NCBI GenBank assembly: GCA_963810935.1
Contig: CAWEPK010000015.1
Coordinates: 1 to 64,000 of the forward strand
Source: an uncultured delta proteobacterium
GTDB taxonomy: Bacteria; Desulfobacterota; Syntrophorhabdia; Syntrophorhabdales; WCHB1-27
DNA: 64,000 bases
Direction of reading: 5' to 3'
Both the position numbers and the translations under genes were made by a program. Of this stretch, positions 1 to 47,602 are shown piece by piece; within the stretch, counting starts at the first letter, position 1; each line of letters opens with the position of its first letter. The notes below the pieces were generated by a model that saw only the letters and a program-made list of their open reading frames with translations, was not told where the DNA came from and made no database searches.

Positions 1-2
1 GT

Positions 3-1067
3 TTGAAAGAAGACCGGCTGACAATTATCGTCGAGATGGTAGTCGACCCGGACGGGTCGGTTCGGGACTCGGATATCTCAAGGGCGTGGGTGCGCAACCA
101 GGCGAAGCTCTCATACCATGCAGTCGGCGCATGGCTCGAAGGCGGCACCATGCCGGCAGGAGTCTCGGCCATCCCGGGGCTCGATGAGAACCTCCGAATG
201 CAGGACCGGGTAGCCCAGCGCCTGAAAGCCCTGCGCCATGCCCATGGGGCCCTTGATCTTGAAACGGTCAAGGGAACGGCGATCTTCGAGGACGGCCGGC
301 TCCGCGGGTTCAGCGTCGAGAAGAAGAACCGGGCACAGGACCTCATCGAAGACTTCATGATCGCGGCAAATGGCGTCACCGCCCGCTATCTGTCATCTCG
401 AAACTTTCCTTCCCTCCGACGTGTGGTAAAGACTCCAAAGCGATGGGTACGAATTGTCGAGCTTGCCAGGGAACACGGGTTCCAGCTTCCCGACGTACCC
501 GACTCTGCCGAGCTCGACAAGTTCCTGATGAAGCAAAAGGCAGAGGATCCCCAAAGATTCCCCGACCTGTCCCTCTCAATCATAAAGCTCCTGGGGCCGG
601 GTGAATATGCGGCAGAGCTCCCGGGAGACAGGCCCATCGGTCACTTCGGCCTCGCCGTCAGGGACTATGCCCATTCCACTGCCCCCAATCGCCGGTATCC
701 CGACCTTGTTACACAGCGATTGCTCAAGGCCGCAATGGCTCACGAGCCCGCGCCCTACCAAATAGACGAACTTGAGACCCTCGCCAGACACTGCACACAA
801 GAGGAGGATGAAGCGAAGAAGGTCGAGCGGCAGGTGGAGAAATCGGCAGCGGCGTTGCTGCTCGAGTCACGCATCGGGGAACATTTCGACGCGATCGTGA
901 CTGGTGCTGCGCCCAAAGGAACATGGGTGCGCATTCTTTATCCTCCCATTGAAGGGAGGTTAGTGCATGGCTTCGAAGGACTCGACGTGGGCCACCGGAT
1001 CAGGGTGCAGCTGATCAACACGGATGTGGAGCGGGGATTCATCGATTTCAAGAGGGCCCATAGATAG
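3..1067 (+). CDS. RNB-domain exoribonuclease (RNase II/R family), 5'-truncated by window edge
   Basis: LIEDFMIAAN, HFGLA..YAHSTAPNRRYPDL motifs and C-terminal S1-like domain. Confidence 0.9.
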   Translation: MKEDRLTIIVEMVVDPDGSVRDSDISRAWVRNQAKLSYHAVGAWLEGGTMPAGVSAIPGLDENLRMQDRVAQRLKALRHAHGALDLETVKGTAIFEDGRLRGFSVEKKNRAQDLIEDFMIAANGVTARYLSSRNFPSLRRVVKTPKRWVRIVELAREHGFQLPDVPDSAELDKFLMKQKAEDPQRFPDLSLSIIKLLGPGEYAAELPGDRPIGHFGLAVRDYAHSTAPNRRYPDLVTQRLLKAAMAHEPAPYQIDELETLARHCTQEEDEAKKVERQVEKSAAALLLESRIGEHFDAIVTGAAPKGTWVRILYPPIEGRLVHGFEGLDVGHRIRVQLINTDVERGFIDFKRAHR

Positions 1068-1096
1068 GAACGTCATGATTTAATGAAACCCCGATG

Positions 1097-1735
1097 CTAA
1101 GAACGAGCGGAGATATACGGGTTGGTCGCTTTTTCCATGTCTATCGTACTTTTCGGCGCGCTGCCGTAATTATGGCCCGGCAGCACCAAGGTGTCATCAG
1201 GCAGGGTGTAGAGCTTGTTGCGAATGGATGTGGCAAGCGCCTCCCAGGAGCCGCCTCCCCCGTCGGTTCTGCCGACAGCCCCGATGAACAGGGTATCGCC
1301 GGTGAAGACAACTCCCTTATGGTACAGGCAGATACCTCCGGGAGAATGGCCCGGGGTGTGAATGACGGACAGGCTTACCTCGCCCACGGTAACGACGTCG
1401 CCGTCCTTGACGGTCCTGCCGGCAGGAGGCGAACCCTCAGCCCCAAACATCCTCAGCATCTCCGGGGATTGGTGGGTGAGGGCGTAGGCTTCCAGCTCGT
1501 GGATGACGATAATCGCTCCGGTCGACTCCTGCATGCGCTTGTTCCCCAGGATATGGTCCACATGGGAATGGGTGTTGAGAATGTACTTTATCGTGAAGCC
1601 CCTCCTTGCGGCTTCCTGGAGAATGCGGTGCTCGTCGCCCGCAGGGTCTATCACCAGCGCTTCTTTCGTTTTCTCGCAGCCGACGAGATAGGCAAAGACC
1701 GCCATCTGTCCCACTTGCATCTGCTTTACCTTCAC
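1097..1735 (-). CDS. MBL-fold metallo-hydrolase (glyoxalase II-like)
   Basis: THSHVDH, HTPGHS, FTGD and PGH motifs. Confidence 0.9.
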   Translation of the reverse strand: MKVKQMQVGQMAVFAYLVGCEKTKEALVIDPAGDEHRILQEAARRGFTIKYILNTHSHVDHILGNKRMQESTGAIIVIHELEAYALTHQSPEMLRMFGAEGSPPAGRTVKDGDVVTVGEVSLSVIHTPGHSPGGICLYHKGVVFTGDTLFIGAVGRTDGGGGSWEALATSIRNKLYTLPDDTLVLPGHNYGSAPKSTIDMEKATNPYISARS

Positions 1736-1895
1736 GTGCGCTCCAATTAATCGAAATCACTAACAATGCTATCGTTCAAGGGAGACATGCAAGCAAGAAT
1801 CGCCTTGGACAACTTCGTCCTTGTCCCGGAGGGACAGATGAAAGTCGAGGGTCGCCACCGTAGATAGCTGTCATTCTACACCGAACAGATGTTTT

Positions 1896-2147
1896 TTAGT
1901 TCCGCCGTGAAAGACAGTCTTCACAGATCCATCCTTCGTCCAGTTCTTCCGCGCCGGCTATCGGCATTACTCTGACGCAGCACATGCACCTTATTTCCCT
2001 AACACCGAGGGCCATAAGCTGGAGCTTCCTCGGGATGGGAGTCTTTATCAATACAACGGTTCTATCCCGGCTCTCATCATCCGGCGTCGTCTCCTCGTAG
2101 TCCCATTCCCCTTCATAAGCCTCGGCGGCACTTGTGTTTCTTCCCAT
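1896..2147 (-). CDS. small hypothetical protein with acidic N-terminus and C-terminal CxxC...CxxC putative zinc finger
   Basis: CMCC and CEDC motifs; ATG at 2147 (alternative TTG at 2159 after AAAGGA). Confidence 0.6.
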   Translation of the reverse strand: MGRNTSAAEAYEGEWDYEETTPDDESRDRTVVLIKTPIPRKLQLMALGVREIRCMCCVRVMPIAGAEELDEGWICEDCLSRRN

Positions 2148-2165
2148 ACTATCACCCAAATCCTT

Positions 2166-2249
2166 TCACCTAATCCGGACTGTTATCGGTATGCTCGGAT
2201 TCTCACTTGTATCGGCTCCGATCACCTGTTTTCTTTGACCACCGGCCAC
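2166..2249 (-). CDS. 27-aa peptide whose N-terminus is homologous to the DnaK N-terminus (MAGGQRKQVIGAD vs [13 protein letters not shown])
   Basis: GTG start after GAGG; aligns with dnaK at 43420-43458. Confidence 0.5.
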   Translation of the reverse strand: MAGGQRKQVIGADTSENPSIPITVRIR

Positions 2250-2319
2250 ATTGTCCTCGTTGCGGTCAATATCAATTGTATACAATCGAAGATAATCCGC
2301 CTCCCCGGTTTTGTCAAAT
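2250..2319 (-). promoter_or_regulatory. sigma70 promoter TTGACA-N17-TATCTT with ATTGTATACAAT palindrome; near-copy of the dnaK upstream region
   Basis: direct alignment with 43459-43527; palindrome at 2275-2286. Confidence 0.75.
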
Positions 2320-2731
2320 AGACCTCTTCCTGACCGACCGGCCGGGAGCCGGCCGACCGGCGCGTCCGGGTTCGGAAAACCCGTGCGTGAGGTTCTCTTA
2401 TAGGCAGGAAGACATGGTCGCACGACCCTTATATTGCGTCGTTCTGTCTAATTGAAAAGGCATTTGGAGAACAATGCAAGTTAGGGCATTGTAGGTTGCG
2501 TCCGCACTCTCCGGTATGCGCTCCCGAAAAGGATTGCCGCCACGAACGATGACAACGGCGATGGCATGTAATCCATACCTCGGGCTGGATAGAGCCTGCG
2601 TCGGCGTCCTTCCTGGAGTCCTTAACCCTGACTCTCTCCGTTCGATAGGCGAATTGGCGCGGTAATCGTGAGCGGGCACAAAGAAAGCGGAGTCATTCCT
2701 GCACCCCGTTTCTCGGATGGCCCAATCCTCC

Positions 2732-3608
2732 TTACTTCTTGAACCTTCTCCGTACAACCCCGAGAGCTATGAGGCCGGGGCCGAGAAGGAGCACGGCAGG
2801 AGGAAGCGGGGTAGGCGTCGCGAGGAAGCCTTGCTCCTTGGTTCCATTGAAATATTGCCCTACGATGTTGCTGCCGTCTGTGCCAAGGGCTTCAGTACTG
2901 GTCCCACCCGGAACGTTGAGGGTGGTGTAATTGGTACCGTCATAGAGGAACCCGTGAGAATTGCCGCTCGCGTCGATGTAGTACCCTACGATGTCGCCCC
3001 CGTTTATTCCACGGGCCGCAGTGGATGTTGCGCCCGGAACGCTGAAAGTGGTGTAGGTCTGAGTTGCAATGTCATAGATGTACCCATTCCCGGAATACGA
3101 CCCCCACTATGCTGTTGCCGCTTATGCCGTAAGCGGGAGCGGGTAAATTGAGGGTAGTCCAGGTCGTAGTCGCACTGTTATAGAGAAACTGATAGGTTAC
3201 ACCGGCTTTTACGTAATGGCCCACGATGTTGTTGCCGTCTATGCCCACGGGCGTAGTCGAGCTTGCGCCCGGAGCGTTGAAAGTGGTGTAGGTCTGGGTC
3301 GTGATGTCATAGGTGAAACCGGGGGCGCCCTGCTCGTTTGCGTACCCCACAACCAGGTTGCCGCTTATGCCCGTAGCCGGACTATTGGCAGAACCCGGCA
3401 CGTAGATGGGGCTGCCGTAAGTCCCGGTTGCGACGTTATATAAGTACCCAATGCCGGGACCCACCAGGACGTTGCCACCGCTTATGCCGTAGGCGACAGT
3501 GCTGCCTCCGAGATTGAGGGTCGTATAGGTATAATCGGCACGGGCGGGGCCGAATGACAGCAATGTTATCAGGATGAAAAACGACGCCGTCAGAATCGTG
3601 TTTCGCAA
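2732..3608 (-). CDS. exported repeat protein with PEP-CTERM/VPLPA-CTERM-like sorting signal (frameshift at C5 run 3101-3105)
   Basis: signal peptide; YTTxNxPGAxSTxxxGIxGxNIVG repeats continue in the shifted frame; ends TPLPPAVLLLGPGLIALGVVRRRFKK*. Confidence 0.8.
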
Positions 3609-5097: not shown

Positions 5098-6784
<1,687 letters not shown>

Positions 6785-38741: not shown

Positions 38742-40837
38742 TCAGGCCCGGCCCGATTCACCCAAAAGACCTAGCATCGCGTCTGCGTCGGCAACCGGCG
38801 TCGCGCAGGCGTTGTTCGAGCAGACATATGCACGGGGTTTGCCGCCTTCGGATTGGAAGTCTTTAAGGAATGGGGCGAGGTCGGCGAGGCGCGGTCCTTC
38901 GGCCCTAGCGCCCTCGGCTGCGACAAGGACAACCGTTTCGGGCAGGAAGCGCGAGCGCAGCGCTTCGATCATGGCGCTGAGGCCTGCCGACGATTCCGGT
39001 CCTGCCAGCACGACCTCGTGTGACGGGCCGAGGGCTAAACTCAGTGCGCAAAGCATCTGCGTGAAACCTGCCGGATACTGCGCCACCCTGCCGGAAAGGG
39101 CCTCGCCGAGCCGGGCGGCCTTGCTTTCCAGGTCCGCATTACCCGTAAGCCTGGCGAGGCGCAGGAGGTTCGTCATAGCAACCGAGTTGCCGGACGGCAC
39201 GGCCCCGTCGTAGGCGTCCTTCTGGCGGAGCGGCAGCGGCTCGCCGTCATCAGCAATGAAAAAGAACCCTTCTTCCGCATCGTCCCAAAAGTGGTCTATC
39301 TGCTCTGCATTGAGCCTGAGTGCTTCCGCTAGGAAGCGCGGGTCAAACGTCGCCTCATAAAGCTCGATGCAGCCCCAGGTGAGAAACGCGTAATCGTCCA
39401 GGTTCGCTCTAATCGACGCCTCCCCGTCGCGGAAGCGGTGCAGGAGCCGCCCGTCCTTGGCCGTCATGCGCTCCGTGATAAACGCGAGCGCCTTCGCAGC
39501 GGCACGGGCATATGCCGCCTCCCCCAGCACTTGAGCGCCCCTTGCGAGGGCGGCGATCATCAGGCCGTTCCAGTCGGCCAGCACTTTGTCGTCCTTATGG
39601 GGATGGACGCGCTTCTCGCGCTCTGCAAACAGCCGCTGCCGCGCCTGCTCGATCGCGGCGGTCCCGCCCTCCGGCGCGTCGCCGCCTTTCAGGTGGAGTA
39701 TGTTGCTCCCTGCATCGCCTTCGCCCCTGGTGTCCCAGTTGCCGTCCGTGCTGACGTTGAAGCGGCGTATGATAAGGCCGGCGGAGGCATCATCGAGGGC
39801 GTCCCTTATCTGCCTTTCCGTCCAGACGTAGAACCTGCCCTCTACGCCTTCGCTGTCCGCGTCTTCGGCGGAATAGAAGCCGCCTTCGGGCGATGTCATA
39901 TCACGTAGCACGTAAGTGAAGACCTCGCGGGCCGTCCTGCCGTATTCGGCCTTGCGCGTCGCCTGGTGCGCCTCCAGGCAAGCAAGGGCGCACATTGCCT
40001 GGTCGTAGAGCATCTTCTCGAAGTGCGGCACGAGCCAGGCCGCATCCGTCGAATATCTGTGGAACCCAAACCCCACGTGGTCGTATATGCCGCCCTGCCG
40101 CATCGCATGAAGCGTCTTCTCTACCATGGCGAGGGCGCGGCCGCTGCGGCGGCGCTTCCAATAGCGCAGCAGGAAACTGATGTTGTGCGCCGTGGGGAAT
40201 TTGGCGCTTCGGTCCGAAAGCCGCCGAAGCGCTCGTCGAAGCGTTCCGAAAGGACGTCGAAAGCCGCGTCGAGGGTCTTTTCGGAGAGGCCGGCAGGCGG
40301 GGGCGTCTCCATCAACTGCCTCAAGTTCTCCACGTGCTTCCGGCCGGAAGCGAGCAGCTCTTCGCGCCGGTTGCGCCAAAGCTCCTTGACGCGCGGCACG
40401 ATATCGACGAGGCCCGGCCTGCCGTACCTGCCCTCTTTCGGGATATACGTCGCCGCGTAGAACGGTGTCTTGTCCGGCGCGAGCAGGATGGTGAGGGGCC
40501 ATCCGCCGCTTCCCGTGAGCATCTGGCAGACCGCCATGTAGACGTTGTCGATGTCGGGCCGCTCCTCCCGGTCCACCTTGATGCAGATAAAGGCGTCATT
40601 CAGCAGTGCCGCCGCCTGCCCGTCCTCGAAAGACTCCCGCTCCATCACGTGGCACCAGTGGCACGTCGAATAGCCTATGGAGAGGAAAACAGGCTTGTCC
40701 TCGGCAGCCGCAGCCGCAAACGCCTCGTCGCCCCACGGCCGCCAATCGACCGGATTGCCCGCGTGCTGCAAAAGATAAGGGCTTTTCTCGTATTGAAGCC
40801 TGTTGCGGCCGGATCCGCTGGTCCGTTGATCGTCCAT
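38742..40837 (-). CDS. thioredoxin-domain DUF255 protein (YyaL/SSP411 family), frameshift near 40205
   Basis: [52 protein letters not shown]. Confidence 0.92.
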
Positions 40838-40954
40838 ACGCTCTTTCCGTTTCCGATAATCTATATCTTGCGCGGCACATCGGCCACACCTGGGTATTCT
40901 GGCGAGGGGAGAAAAGATATGCATGTGAAGGGAAAAATGAGCGATCCCCCAATT

Positions 40955-41020
40955 CCGTCATACCGGCGAAGGCCGGTATCCAGGCCTACGCTGGATGCCG
41001 GATCGAGTCCGGCATGACGG
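40955..41020. repeat. REP-like doublet of the GTCATACCGGCGAA family
   Basis: inverted arms CCGTCATACCGG...CCGGCATGACGG. Confidence 0.7.
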
Positions 41021-41544: not shown

Positions 41545-43458
41545 CTATGCCGACTTTCTCACGTCCTCATACTCCGCGTCTATCGTTTCGTCGCCGGGGC
41601 CATGCCCGTTGCCGCCCGCGCTGCCGCAGCCGGCCCCGCAGCCGCCTCCGGCCGCCTGCTTATAGAGCCCCTCCGCCATACGGTGGGACGCCTTCGTCAG
41701 TTCTTCTCCGGCCTGCTTCATACGCCCGGCATCTCCACTCTTCAGGGCCTCTTTCGCACGCCCCAGGGCGTCCTCGGCCGCGCTCACGTCCTCGGCGGCC
41801 AGCCTGCCCCTGCCTTCGCCCAGCGTCTTCTCCGTCTGGTAGACGAGGTTGTCCAGATGGTTCCTTGCCTCCACTTCGTCCTTCTTCGCATGGTCCTCCG
41901 CGCTGTGGGCCTCCGCGTCCCTCACCATCTTCTGAATGTCCGCCTCGGAGAGGCCGGTCGAAGCCGTGATCGTGATCGCCTGCTCCTTGTTCGTCGCAAG
42001 GTCTTTCGCCGACACGTGGAGGATGCCGTTCGCGTCTATGTCGAACGTTACCTCGATCTGCGGCAGGCCGCGCGGCGCGGTCGGCAGTCCCATCAGGTGG
42101 AAGCGGCCGAGCGTCCTTGCGTCGCGCGCCATCTCGCGCTCGCCCTGGAGCACGTGGACCTCGACGCTCGTCTGGTTGTCTTCCGCTGTCGAAAATACCT
42201 GGCTGCGCTTGACCGGTATAGTCGTGTTCCTCTCGACGATCTTCGTCAGTACGCCGCCCAGCGTCTCGATGCCGAGTGAAAGGGGCGTAACGTCGAGGAG
42301 CAGCATGTCTTTCACCTCGCCCGTCAGTACTCCGCCCTGCACGGACGCGCCCAGGGAGACCACTTCGTCCGGGTTGACGCCCTTGTGCGGCTCCTTGCCG
42401 AAGAAGTCTTTGACCATCTGCTGTATCTTCGGGATACGCGTCGAGCCGCCGACGAGCACTACCTCGTTTATGTCGCTTACCGAGAGCTTAGCGTCCGCCA
42501 TCGCCTTCTTGCACGGCTCTATCGTCCTTGCGAAGAGGTCTTCGCATATCTGCTCCAGGCGCGCCCTAGTCAGCTTGAGGGCAAGGTGCTTCGGCCCGGT
42601 CTGGTCGGCCGTGATGAAGGGCAGGTTTATCTCCGTCTCCATCATCGAGGAAAGCTCTATCTTAGCCTTCTCCGCCGCGTCCTTGAGGCGCTGCAAAGCC
42701 ATGCTGTCGCGGGAAAGGTCGATCCCCTGCTCTTTCCTGAATTCGGCCGCGAGGAATTCGACGACCCTCTGGTCTACGTCGTCGCCGCCAAGGTGCGTGT
42801 CGCCGTTCGTCGAGAGCACCTCGACTACGTTGTCGCCCACTTCGAGGATCGAGATGTCGAATGTGCCGCCGCCGAAGTCGTAGACAGCGATCTTTTCGCT
42901 CTTCTTCTTATCGAGGCCGTAGGCCAACGCCGATGCTGTAGGCTCGTTGACGATGCGCAGCACGTTGAGGCCCGCGATCCTGCCCGCGTCCTTGGTCGCC
43001 TGACGCTGGGAGTCGTTGAAGTATGCGGGCACGGTGATGACCGCGTCTTCCACGGTCCGGCCGAGGTATGCCTCCGCCGATTTCTTCAGCTTCTGGAGGA
43101 TGAGGCCCGATATCTCCTGGGGCGTATACTGCTTGCCGCGCACTTCGGCGCGCGCGTTGCCGCTCGAGTCAGCGACCACCTTGTACGAGACCTTCTCGTC
43201 TTTGACTTCCGTATAGCGCCTGCCCATGAACCTTTTGATCGAGAATATAGTATTCTCCGGGTTCGTGATCGCCTGCCTTTTCGCCACCTGGCCTACGAGC
43301 ACCTCCCCGTCCTTCGTGAAGGCGACCACGCTCGGGGTCGTCCTCTGCCCTTCTTCGTTGACGATGACCTTCGGCTCCCCGTTTTCCATCACGGAAACGA
43401 CCGAAAACGTTGTTCCCAGGTCTATACCGATTACTTGTTTTCTCTGTGTATCAGCCAT
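41545..43458 (-). CDS. dnaK: molecular chaperone DnaK (Hsp70)
   Basis: [41 protein letters not shown]; ends DAEYEDV. Confidence 0.98.
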
Positions 43459-43527
43459 ATTTTCCTCCTTGCGGTGAATATCATTGTATACAAGCTAAGA
43501 TAATCCGCCCACCCGGTTTTGTCAAAT
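43459..43527 (-). promoter_or_regulatory. dnaK sigma70 promoter TTGACA-N17-TATCTT with TTGTATACAA palindrome and AGGAGG SD
   Basis: seen directly; palindrome at 43484-43493; conserved in the copy at 2250-2319. Confidence 0.75.
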
Positions 43528-43571: not shown

Positions 43572-43777
43572 GGAAAGGCAAGGACACGTCACTGAGCCGC
43601 GCATTGCGGAGCGACCGCTATCAGCGTTGGCGCAGCCTGAGCGTCCGCCCGAAGGGTGGTGCTGCGAGTCGCTTGTACCCGCTTCTCGTACACCGTCTCG
43701 CAGCAAGCGAAGCGGAGCCTTACGCTGATCGGGAGCGGAAGCCCAGGCGCGGCGAAGGGACGTGTCCTTGCCTTTCC
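43572..43777. mobile_element. 206-bp MITE-like element with perfect 19-bp terminal IRs
   Basis: GGAAAGGCAAGGACACGTC / GACGTGTCCTTGCCTTTCC; internal TGTAC...GTACA. Confidence 0.65.
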
Positions 43778-45937: not shown

Positions 45938-47546
45938 CTACTGGTGGTCCTTCCACATGCCGTACTTCTCGCTCAATACCCTGTGCAGGATCTTTCCGTT
46001 GCCCGTGCGCGGCATCTCCTCGTCTTTGATGAAGACGATGCTCTTGGGCACTTTAAATCCCGCGATCTTGCCTTTGCAGTGGCCGCTGATCTCTTCCGGG
46101 GTGGCCGTCTGCCCTTCGTGCAGCACGACGACAGCCATGACCGATTCGCCCCACTTCTCGTGCGGCACGCCGATGACCGCCACGTCCTTTACCTTAGGAT
46201 AGCCGCCCAGGCAGTTCTCCACTTCGGACGGGAAGATGTTCTCTCCGCCGGAGATGATCATGTTGGCCTTCCTGTCAACGAGGAACAGGTAGCCCTCCTC
46301 ATCCTTGTAGCCCATGTCGCCCGCGCTGAAATACTCGCCCTTCATCGCGGCCTCCAGCTTCTCCGGCTCCTTCCAGTAACCCGTAAGCAGCATGGGGCTC
46401 CTGTGAGTAGACCTCGCCGACTTTATTCGGCTCGGTGACGAGTTTCCCATCCTCGTCGTAGAGCTGCAGCAGGTCGGACCCTATGACCTCGCGGCCGCAC
46501 GAGCCGAGCTTCGTTAGCTGCTCCTCCGGGTGAAGGATGGTGACGCACCCCGCCTCCGTAGACCCGTAAGCCTCGTCGAGCTTCGAGTTCGGGAACATCT
46601 TGAGTATCCCGATCTTCGTGTCCCTGCGCGCAGGCGCGGAGGAAATGAGGAGCTTCTTGATCGAGTTCAGGTCGTACTTCTGCTTCACCGCGTCGGGCAG
46701 CGCGAGCATCATGATGTAGTGCGTCGGGACGAGCGAGGTGAAGGTGACCCTGTGGTCCGAGAAGGTCTTGAGCAGGTCTTCCGGGTCGAAGCTTATCATG
46801 TTGTAGCACATGACCGTGCCGCCCACCCAGGTATTCACGAACGAATAGTTCAGGGAGTTGATATGGCAGCACGGCATGACGAGGAGCGTCACGTCGTTGA
46901 AGTCGAAGCCGTGGTCGTAGATCATGATGAAGTACTGCGACACCAGGGAGCGGTGGCTCTTCATGACCCCCTTGGGCCTGCCCGTAGTGCCGCTCGTGTA
47001 CATGATGATCCAGATGTCTTCCGAATCGACTTCTGTCGCCGGCTCTTCAGGGCTCGCCGCGGCCATTGCGTCTTCGAGCGGAATGTACCCGTCATACTTC
47101 GGGTTGTCTACTGCGAAGGAGATGTACTTCTCGACCGTGGGCAGGTTCTTTCTCATCCCGTTGACCATCTCTATCCACGGGTAGTCCTTGCCGTCCCGGA
47201 GGTTTTTGCCGCCCTGGACGAGGAAGACCTTCGCTTCGCTGTGCGTTATGTTGTATTCCATCTCCGGTGCGGAAAGCCTGAACATGATAGGCACGACGAT
47301 AAAGCCGCCCTTGGCTGCTGCTGCGTAGATGTCCATCCACTCGACGCAGTTGTACCCGAGCGCCGCGAACCTGTCGCCCTTCTTCATCCCCATTCCGGCG
47401 AGCAGGTTCGCGAGTCTGCACGCCCTTTCGTTCCATTGCGCGAAGGTGTACTCCTTATAGAGGTCTTTCGCCCCTATCTTGTTCGGCCATTTACTGGCGT
47501 TCACCTTCAGCACTTCCTTCGCCGTCATCCATTTCTTCATTAGCAT
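45938..47546 (-). CDS. AMP-binding acyl-CoA synthetase (frameshift near 46402)
   Basis: YTSGTTGRPKG, YGSTE, GD, DRK..MIISGGENI.P.EVE, GKI. Confidence 0.9.
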
Positions 47547-47602
47547 GATGTCCTCCATATTTGGTCTATCTTAAACCCCTGGCCTTGTGCGCTCTATGAT
47601 CT

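Follow-up and report, generated by a model that had tools for sequence, protein, structure and literature searches.

The promoter, 5' UTR and first codons of an accessory dnaK gene lie as a diverged second copy in front of an unrelated small zinc-finger gene, and with moderate confidence we read this arrangement as a promoter capture, in which the copied promoter would be kept for transcription and the short peptide encoded behind it would be a dispensable leftover. The window analyzed here is a stretch of 64,000 nucleotides from an uncultured delta proteobacterium; G000 denotes the genome containing it, G002 a genome of the same genus, G019 a genome of another genus and L058 a metagenome locus. 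On the minus strand, window positions 2319-2218 match positions 43527-43427 with 83.3% identity over 102 nt (E 2.7e-23), which bears out the alignment of 2319-2211 with dnaK 43527-43420 reported in a first-pass annotation of the window. The genome sequence search proposed in that annotation returned one strong second match in the 4.06-Mb genome G000, with nothing else at E <1, plus alleles in relatives; the sequence TTGACAAAACCGGG occurs exactly twice in G000. Ahead of the start codon the copy differs from the window dnaK2 by 7 substitutions and 1 indel in 70 nt, and the start codon itself carries an A to G change, in agreement with the roughly nine differences counted earlier. When compared with the dnaK2 allele of G002, the homology reaches ~6 nt farther upstream, to ~2325. 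The dnaK2-derived promoter core and 5' UTR spans 2250..2325 (minus strand; 83% identical to window 43527-43459); since the G002 allele matches it better than G000's own dnaK2 does, the copy did not arise by recent duplication of the dnaK2 gene now found in the window.

Within this core we find a predicted sigma70-type -35 hexamer TTGACA (2317-2312, minus strand), a 17-nt spacer, a predicted -10 hexamer TATCTT (2294-2289, minus strand) and, over the predicted transcription start, the palindrome TTGTATACAA (2285-2276), a candidate GntR/FadR-type repressor site. All three elements are intact, as had been claimed, and each is invariant in 5/5 aligned copies and donors. The sigma70-type site at 2317-2289 scores 10/12, while by score alone such sites are about as frequent as chance predicts (2 found vs 1.4 expected). 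The Shine-Dalgarno sequence, which had been listed as part of the copy, is not intact: at 2261-2255 (minus strand) AAGGAGG has become AACGAGG, a weakening common to the window and G019, and the leader starts with GTG. L058 and both contigs of the sequencing run X7 retain the G, unlike the window and G019.

The donor is an intact gene with a donor-type promoter (41545..43527, minus strand; start 43458). It had been annotated simply as dnaK and is indeed a true DnaK gene, passing TIGR02350 (966 vs 822.55 bits) and PRK00290 (999 vs 648 bits), but it is an accessory paralogue, dnaK2; the housekeeping gene, dnaK1, sits on contig C8 (G000:C8:430444). G000 encodes two true DnaK genes, both above the TIGR02350 cut-off. 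All rows went into the tree of 29 dnaK loci from 22 family genomes, with the G002 sequence read through a frameshift and the G021 sequence incomplete. It separates, at 100/100, a set of 22 loci with a single member in each genome from a set of 7 confined to 4 genomes; the window gene at 43458 falls in the patchy 7-locus group, dnaK2. In G019 (C10, C25, C26) and in G014 (C124, C145) there are two or three dnaK2 copies in differing surroundings, and these multi-copy loci suggest that dnaK2 is mobile. A second relic of a dnaK2 5' end was noticed at L063 (G003:C52:3335-3430), where the -35 hexamer, the Shine-Dalgarno sequence and ~7 codons are kept and the -10 hexamer is deleted; it adjoins Fur-like and rubrerythrin-like genes, near the gene that succeeds dnaK2 in the window. 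A crude genome-wide screen for other 5'-end copies gave 54 raw, unvetted candidates among 2673.

The recipient gene (1896..2147, minus strand) encodes an 83-aa protein with an acidic N-terminal part and a CxxC-x17-CxxC zinc finger, predicted to be treble-clef-like; alignment with relatives places its start at the ATG at 2147. It was found in 12 of the 22 family genomes, and a search of 1.84 billion sequences yielded 23 representatives at E up to 0.001, the last two of them weak; the four cysteines are invariant in 23/23 aligned sequences. Sequence, profile and fold searches assign the protein to no named family: Pfam gave no family above its cut-off and NCBIfam 0, the PDB sequence search had no match below E 0.37, and the ESM Atlas returned just unnamed clusters with low recognition. 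The structure model, confident over residues 31-79, weakly resembles small zinc folds (best Foldseek E 0.28, best VIA Z 2.6), among which the ClpX-type C4 domain 2ds5 (Foldseek E 3.7, VIA Z 2.2, rmsd 2.2 over 34 residues) ties with others.

The upstream motifs of this family, which we take to be promoter types, are sigma54-like (GGC-N7-TTGC) at 11 of 20 family loci, TTAATC-type repeats at 5 and dnaK2-type at 3, with no recognised motif at 1; one TTAATC-repeat locus also gave a distant sigma54-pattern match, which was not counted. The dnaK2-type region is thus absent from 17/20 zinc-finger loci. The three proteins with dnaK2-type upstream DNA form a single clade (100/100) amid relatives of other types, which indicates that the dnaK2 head is derived and arose once. 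The native promoter motif is missing at all 3 fused loci. None of the 12 family representatives read (of 23) has a DnaK-like N-terminus. Across the family (L008-L023, L059) the upstream motif changes by lineage, and the TTAATC repeats have an 11-base period.

The same fusion occurs in three lineages. In G019 the junction is part of a 3.1-kb block with 91-95% identity to G000, against only ~65-80% for the surrounding DNA; in the window the shared block covers 1..2617 and holds the copy, the zinc-finger gene, an MBL-fold hydrolase gene (1735-1097) and an RNB-family gene. From these identities, the block was likely transferred laterally between the two genera. The left edge of this block is marked by a ~140-nt stretch (window 2475-2617) with a terminator-like hairpin (2559-2536), which recurs at G000:C9:7781-7926. 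The MBL hydrolase gene was considered as part of a conserved unit and rejected, as L058 has a convergent gene in its place and the upstream region does not occur at 13 other MBL loci.

L058, one of two metagenome loci found, has the same promoter, Shine-Dalgarno sequence, ATG and 26 DnaK codons, followed by a tail; its 43-codon ORF ends 4 nt before the zinc-finger ATG and is called on 3 contigs. The dnaK match stops at codon 26; the 46 nt behind it match the native UTR of G001 from their very first base onward (1/1000 shuffles), which places the junction directly after that codon. The tail also aligns with the upstream region of L059 (0/1000 shuffles); of the nine upstream regions compared with it, these 2 match at <=1/1000 and the other 7 do not. 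In G019 ATC stands in place of the start codon, the frame is shifted and a stop comes after 14 codons, with the zinc-finger gene intact (96%). A contig of run X1 provides a fourth allele, with an ATG start, that differs from the window at 0/84 positions in the promoter, 4/84 in the leader and 10/146 in the gene. The four alleles form a decay series, from L058 with 26 codons, Shine-Dalgarno sequence and ATG through the window with 13 codons and GTG to G019 without start and frame.

That the arrangement is an assembly chimera or a common dispersed repeat is hardly conceivable. The window assembly is error-prone, with several split reading frames, but the copies are 17% divergent and there are only two in the genome, and the junction recurs in G019, in L058 and in short-read contigs of X1, X2, X3 and X7. 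Contigs from X2 and X3 bridge it with 0 differences to the window; X1-X3 are one study and may be the window genome's source campaign. X7 comes from another study, and one of its contigs has an L058-length fusion with exactly the L058 spacing, that is, 131 letters between 2245 and 2147. In these junction counts X5, with <31 letters to one side of the junction, was excluded, and neither X6 nor X9 covers it. The first-pass annotation had itself named a chimera without spanning reads and a common dispersed repeat as cases that would overturn it; the spanning contigs and the count of two copies in G000 dispose of both. No further fusion turned up when the L058 head was searched as DNA against 96 genomes of the order. 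Strict exact-pattern promoter scans gave 0 matches in metagenome contigs and 0 in viral contigs, counts that do not imply absence, and 1 match in genome contigs, the G002 dnaK2.

We then compared what is kept and what decays between alleles. Between the window and L058 there are 0/22 changes in the -35 hexamer, the -10 hexamer and the palindrome, the last of which was chosen as a motif after being seen, vs 15/54 in the remaining promoter and UTR (P=0.004) and vs 8/23 at four-fold sites in the gene (P=0.004). Between the window and G019, the 13 codons show 11/38 changes and an indel vs 1/76 in the promoter (P=2e-5), and they change faster than the non-coding flanks (11/38 vs 29/451; P=7e-5). 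Promoter capture, one of the explanations originally offered, thereby gains support on two sides: the captured type is a derived clade, and the motifs are conserved while the codons are not. We consider it quite unlikely that the copy is instead a neutral scar left by a dnaK2 that was deleted or only partly copied, a 5' end that does not drive the gene and looks preserved because of recency or gene conversion. Such relics do arise, as the comparable one in G003 shows, with its -10 hexamer lost and no gene in line behind it, and against G019 the promoter does not change significantly more slowly than the flanks (1/76 vs 29/451; P=0.10); the promoter likeness could also come from gene conversion with dnaK2. 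However, all 22 of 22 motif positions are unchanged over a divergence that altered 8/23 four-fold sites, and the fused loci have lost the native promoter motif. Moreover, the zinc-finger gene itself has accumulated 19 synonymous vs 13 non-synonymous codon changes relative to L058 with 4/4 cysteines kept, from which we conclude that it needs a promoter. As an account of where the fragment came from, the earlier suggestion of a relic of a second dnaK agrees with capture, whereas a functionless relic is disfavoured.

The coding part of the copy behaves differently from its promoter. The first 13 dnaK2 codons, starting with GTG, remain at 2249-2211 (minus strand), a remnant of the 26 in L058; compared with 43458-43420 they carry 6 synonymous and 4 non-synonymous codon changes, so the six synonymous third-position changes noted at first are confirmed. 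They open a 27-aa leader ORF, also as first described, from the GTG at 2249 to the TGA at 2166, in frame with the zinc-finger gene; its peptide is not conserved. It had been said to stop a few nucleotides before that gene; the actual gap to the ATG at 2147 is 18 nt. The rest of the leader region (2148..2210, minus strand) derives partly from the zinc-finger gene's native 5' UTR and ribosome-binding site and can be aligned to the tail of L058 (8/1000 shuffles).

It is very improbable that this short ORF encodes a working mimic of DnaK, such as a decoy or sensor peptide. The 6 synonymous vs 4 non-synonymous changes relative to dnaK2 and the VIGIDLGTT retained in the L058 leader speak for it, but between two intact dnaK2 genes these 13 codons likewise carry 6 synonymous changes, and pairs of fused alleles never show fewer non-synonymous than synonymous changes (pair ratios 5:5, 6:2 and 7:4, written as non-synonymous:synonymous). 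In addition, the 43-aa form has no homologue but itself (1/1 candidates), and the G019 allele, without start and frame, largely refutes such a role. The selected DnaK-derived leader peptide of the first-pass annotation is consequently not supported.

A second alternative, which we hold to be unlikely though not negligible, is that the copy serves as a promoter and also as a translational relay: ribosomes entering at the dnaK2 start would first translate the leader and then start anew on the zinc-finger gene, translation and not sequence would be under selection, and G019 would be a degenerate or compensated case. Indeed, the leader ORF is open in 3/4 alleles (L058, X1 and the window; lengths 43 and 27 aa), ending 4-18 nt ahead of the zinc-finger gene; the L058 allele has a Shine-Dalgarno sequence, ATG and a 43-codon ORF seen on 3 contigs, the X1 allele keeps the ATG, and, counted to the window stop, the length difference between L058 and the window comes to a net 36 nt, which keeps the frame. 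On the other hand, the remaining allele of the four, G019, has lost its start and its frame and nevertheless has an intact zinc-finger gene, the Shine-Dalgarno sequence is weakened in the window and in G019, where a new G-C pair strengthens the stem over it and the start, and the zinc-finger gene carries its own family-type ribosome-binding site. The new pair (window 2253/2267) is present in the window and G019 and is a mismatch in both intact dnaK2 leaders; it possibly reflects selection to silence the leader stub. Read-through of the TGA from the leader into the zinc-finger gene was rejected, with L058 being in another frame and G019 lacking a start. One database protein, P0006, has a window-type leader running in frame into the zinc-finger gene and breaks off ahead of the finger; it is likely an indel-error version. 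An RNA thermometer also found no clear support: the weak stem over the leader Shine-Dalgarno sequence and start is shared, but its unpaired fraction in the window is nearly flat, going from 0.53 to 0.59 between 20 and 50 C, and leader fold z-scores range from -0.8 to +1.0. Rfam gave 0 matches in window 1700-2800.

Under promoter capture, the history would probably have been as follows. A single old illegitimate recombination would have fused the dnaK2 promoter, 5' UTR and first codons to the zinc-finger gene, replacing the gene's own promoter. The origin was presumably of the duplication type, although the same product would result if a deletion had run from a further copy of dnaK2 into a zinc-finger gene lying downstream of it. 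In this respect, a second X7 contig has the same upstream flank as the fusion and runs on as dnaK for 183 letters (30 of them read) without a match to the zinc-finger gene; the two X7 contigs suggest that the donor allele and the fusion share upstream DNA, favouring duplication. The 3.1-kb block would later have moved between genera, in either direction. Selection to transcribe the zinc-finger gene would have retained the predicted promoter, with the DnaK codons, no longer needed, left to decay. Today, transcription would begin at about 2283, a GntR/FadR-type factor bound to TTGTATACAA across the start site may repress it, and the zinc-finger gene would be translated from its own ribosome-binding site. 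The single RNA contig, from run X13 (depth 2.5), which spans 1900-2118, the gene body only, and may be DNA, is a weak hint at transcription of the zinc-finger gene.

As for the candidate operator, G000 contains 12 exact TTGTATACAA sites vs 1.0 expected, making it the second most enriched of 942 ten-mer palindromes scored. It lies upstream of 2/29 dnaK loci (2/7 dnaK2) as an exact match, a third dnaK2 has a two-mismatch version at the same register, and 1/19 GntR genes in G000 has it upstream. Besides those at the copy and dnaK2, there are ten more exact sites in G000, at C7:120293, C7:220266, C8:209407, C8:412400, C9:132000, C9:337998, C10:30048, C10:97717, C12:119031 and C17:222486; several of these lie in promoter-like A/T-rich DNA, one is upstream of a GntR gene, and a regulon is possible. 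The palindrome fits the FadR-subfamily consensus NyGTM-N0-1-KACNy as given in PMC4494728, and like the FadR-subfamily operators described in that source it is A/T-rich and palindromic; in G000 it is enriched and found upstream of one GntR gene. The 10-mer itself is absent from the main text of PMC4494728 (TGTATAC, 0 occurrences), and TTGTATACAA is a candidate site.

The zinc-finger gene is likely co-regulated with dnaK2, probably by a GntR-type repressor, to judge from the shared promoter and palindrome. Scans with the CIRCE consensus found no site within 6 mismatches at the copy, dnaK2 or dnaK1, and likewise none at the other groES, clpB, four hsp20 genes and hrcA. G000 does encode HrcA, and one groES (upstream of G000:C17:62687) has a CIRCE-like inverted repeat; given the lack of CIRCE at the copy and at both dnaK genes despite an encoded HrcA, we do not infer membership of the HrcA heat-shock regulon for the zinc-finger gene. 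The earlier idea of capture into the dnaK regulon is supported as regards capture, but the donor is dnaK2, without CIRCE. Nor do we propose a heat-shock sigma motif: the context GGATTAT(A/C)TT is common to dnaK1, dnaK2 and clpB but is not enriched over the genome (17 vs ~14). A bolder reading, in which the dnaK2 head is a portable stress-control cassette of promoter, GntR-type operator and translated, DnaK-derived coupling leader, selected because the zinc-finger protein is an adaptor or client-sensor of DnaK2 whose production has to go along with that of DnaK2, and in which the module has spread between genera, seems distinctly improbable to us.

In the rnk-citT module of Cit+ Escherichia coli, part of the donor gene's 5' end was reportedly also carried along. 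That module arose through promoter capture by duplication, as outlined in PMC4718724 (citing Blount et al. 2012), and in the account given there, as at our locus, a rearrangement sets the promoter of an existing gene before another gene. Unlike rnk-citT, the present case is natural, old and dispersed, with the copy 41 kb from the intact dnaK2 and not in tandem, in three lineages and with a decay series, and it is known from sequence. Promoter capture by deletion or translocation is described in the E. coli long-term experiment (bioRxiv 10.1101/2023.11.15.567300); in both cases a pre-existing regulatory sequence is fused to a new downstream region, and deletion from a second dnaK2 copy would be the same route, but our recipient is an established family member that had its own promoter, so that replacement and not proto-gene birth is at issue. 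Myxococcus has the duplicated paralogues DnaK1 and DnaK2, as G000 has two true DnaK genes, although dnaK2 is patchy here (4/22 family genomes). As MxDnaK2 is down-regulated by heat according to PMC11019930, and the heat responses of dnaK paralogues can thus be opposite, the promoter of a dnaK paralogue need not be a heat-shock promoter.

In the literature we found no description of this locus. Promoter capture is a well-known kind of event, and the value of this case is its allele series together with the candidate operator. The locus documents a natural promoter replacement cleanly and from both sides: relatives still have the ancestral promoters, and over four alleles the carried coding stub is lost stepwise while the promoter motifs stay fixed. 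The series serves as a phylogenetic footprint that highlights TTGTATACAA as a candidate operator for a CIRCE-less accessory dnaK, and it links an unannotated, lineage-restricted zinc-finger family to dnaK2, its sole functional lead. The fusion is hosted by several related, uncultured soil and peat bacteria.

Upstream of the -35 hexamer lies a GC-rich hairpin stretch (2326..2420, minus strand), which is itself flanking DNA shared with the L058 locus. The first-pass annotation had seen here a small inverted-repeat element (2321-2419) abutting the copy. The stem is real as a fold (2321-2420, z -4.0), but it is not an insertion: the arms are not retained in L058 although the enclosed sequence is homologous there, which argues against an inserted element. 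A MITE or another non-autonomous inverted-repeat element is also rejected on the grounds that the hairpin is single-copy in G000 and present in 2/22 family genomes. Its right arm overlaps bases common to the G002 dnaK2 promoter, and the upstream stretch is common to the X7 contig that continues as dnaK. Elsewhere in the window, an ABC-F ATPase gene, a thioredoxin-domain-like gene, an AMP-binding enzyme gene and a gene with a PEP-CTERM-like tail are split over two reading frames, likely by assembly indels (split-frame genes at 5098-6784, 38742-40961, 45938-47558 and 2732-3608). Finally, just upstream of the dnaK2 promoter there is a 206-nt MITE-like element (43572-43777) with 56-nt imperfect terminal inverted repeats; G002 lacks it at the corresponding site, and partial relatives of it occur on C7 and C12.
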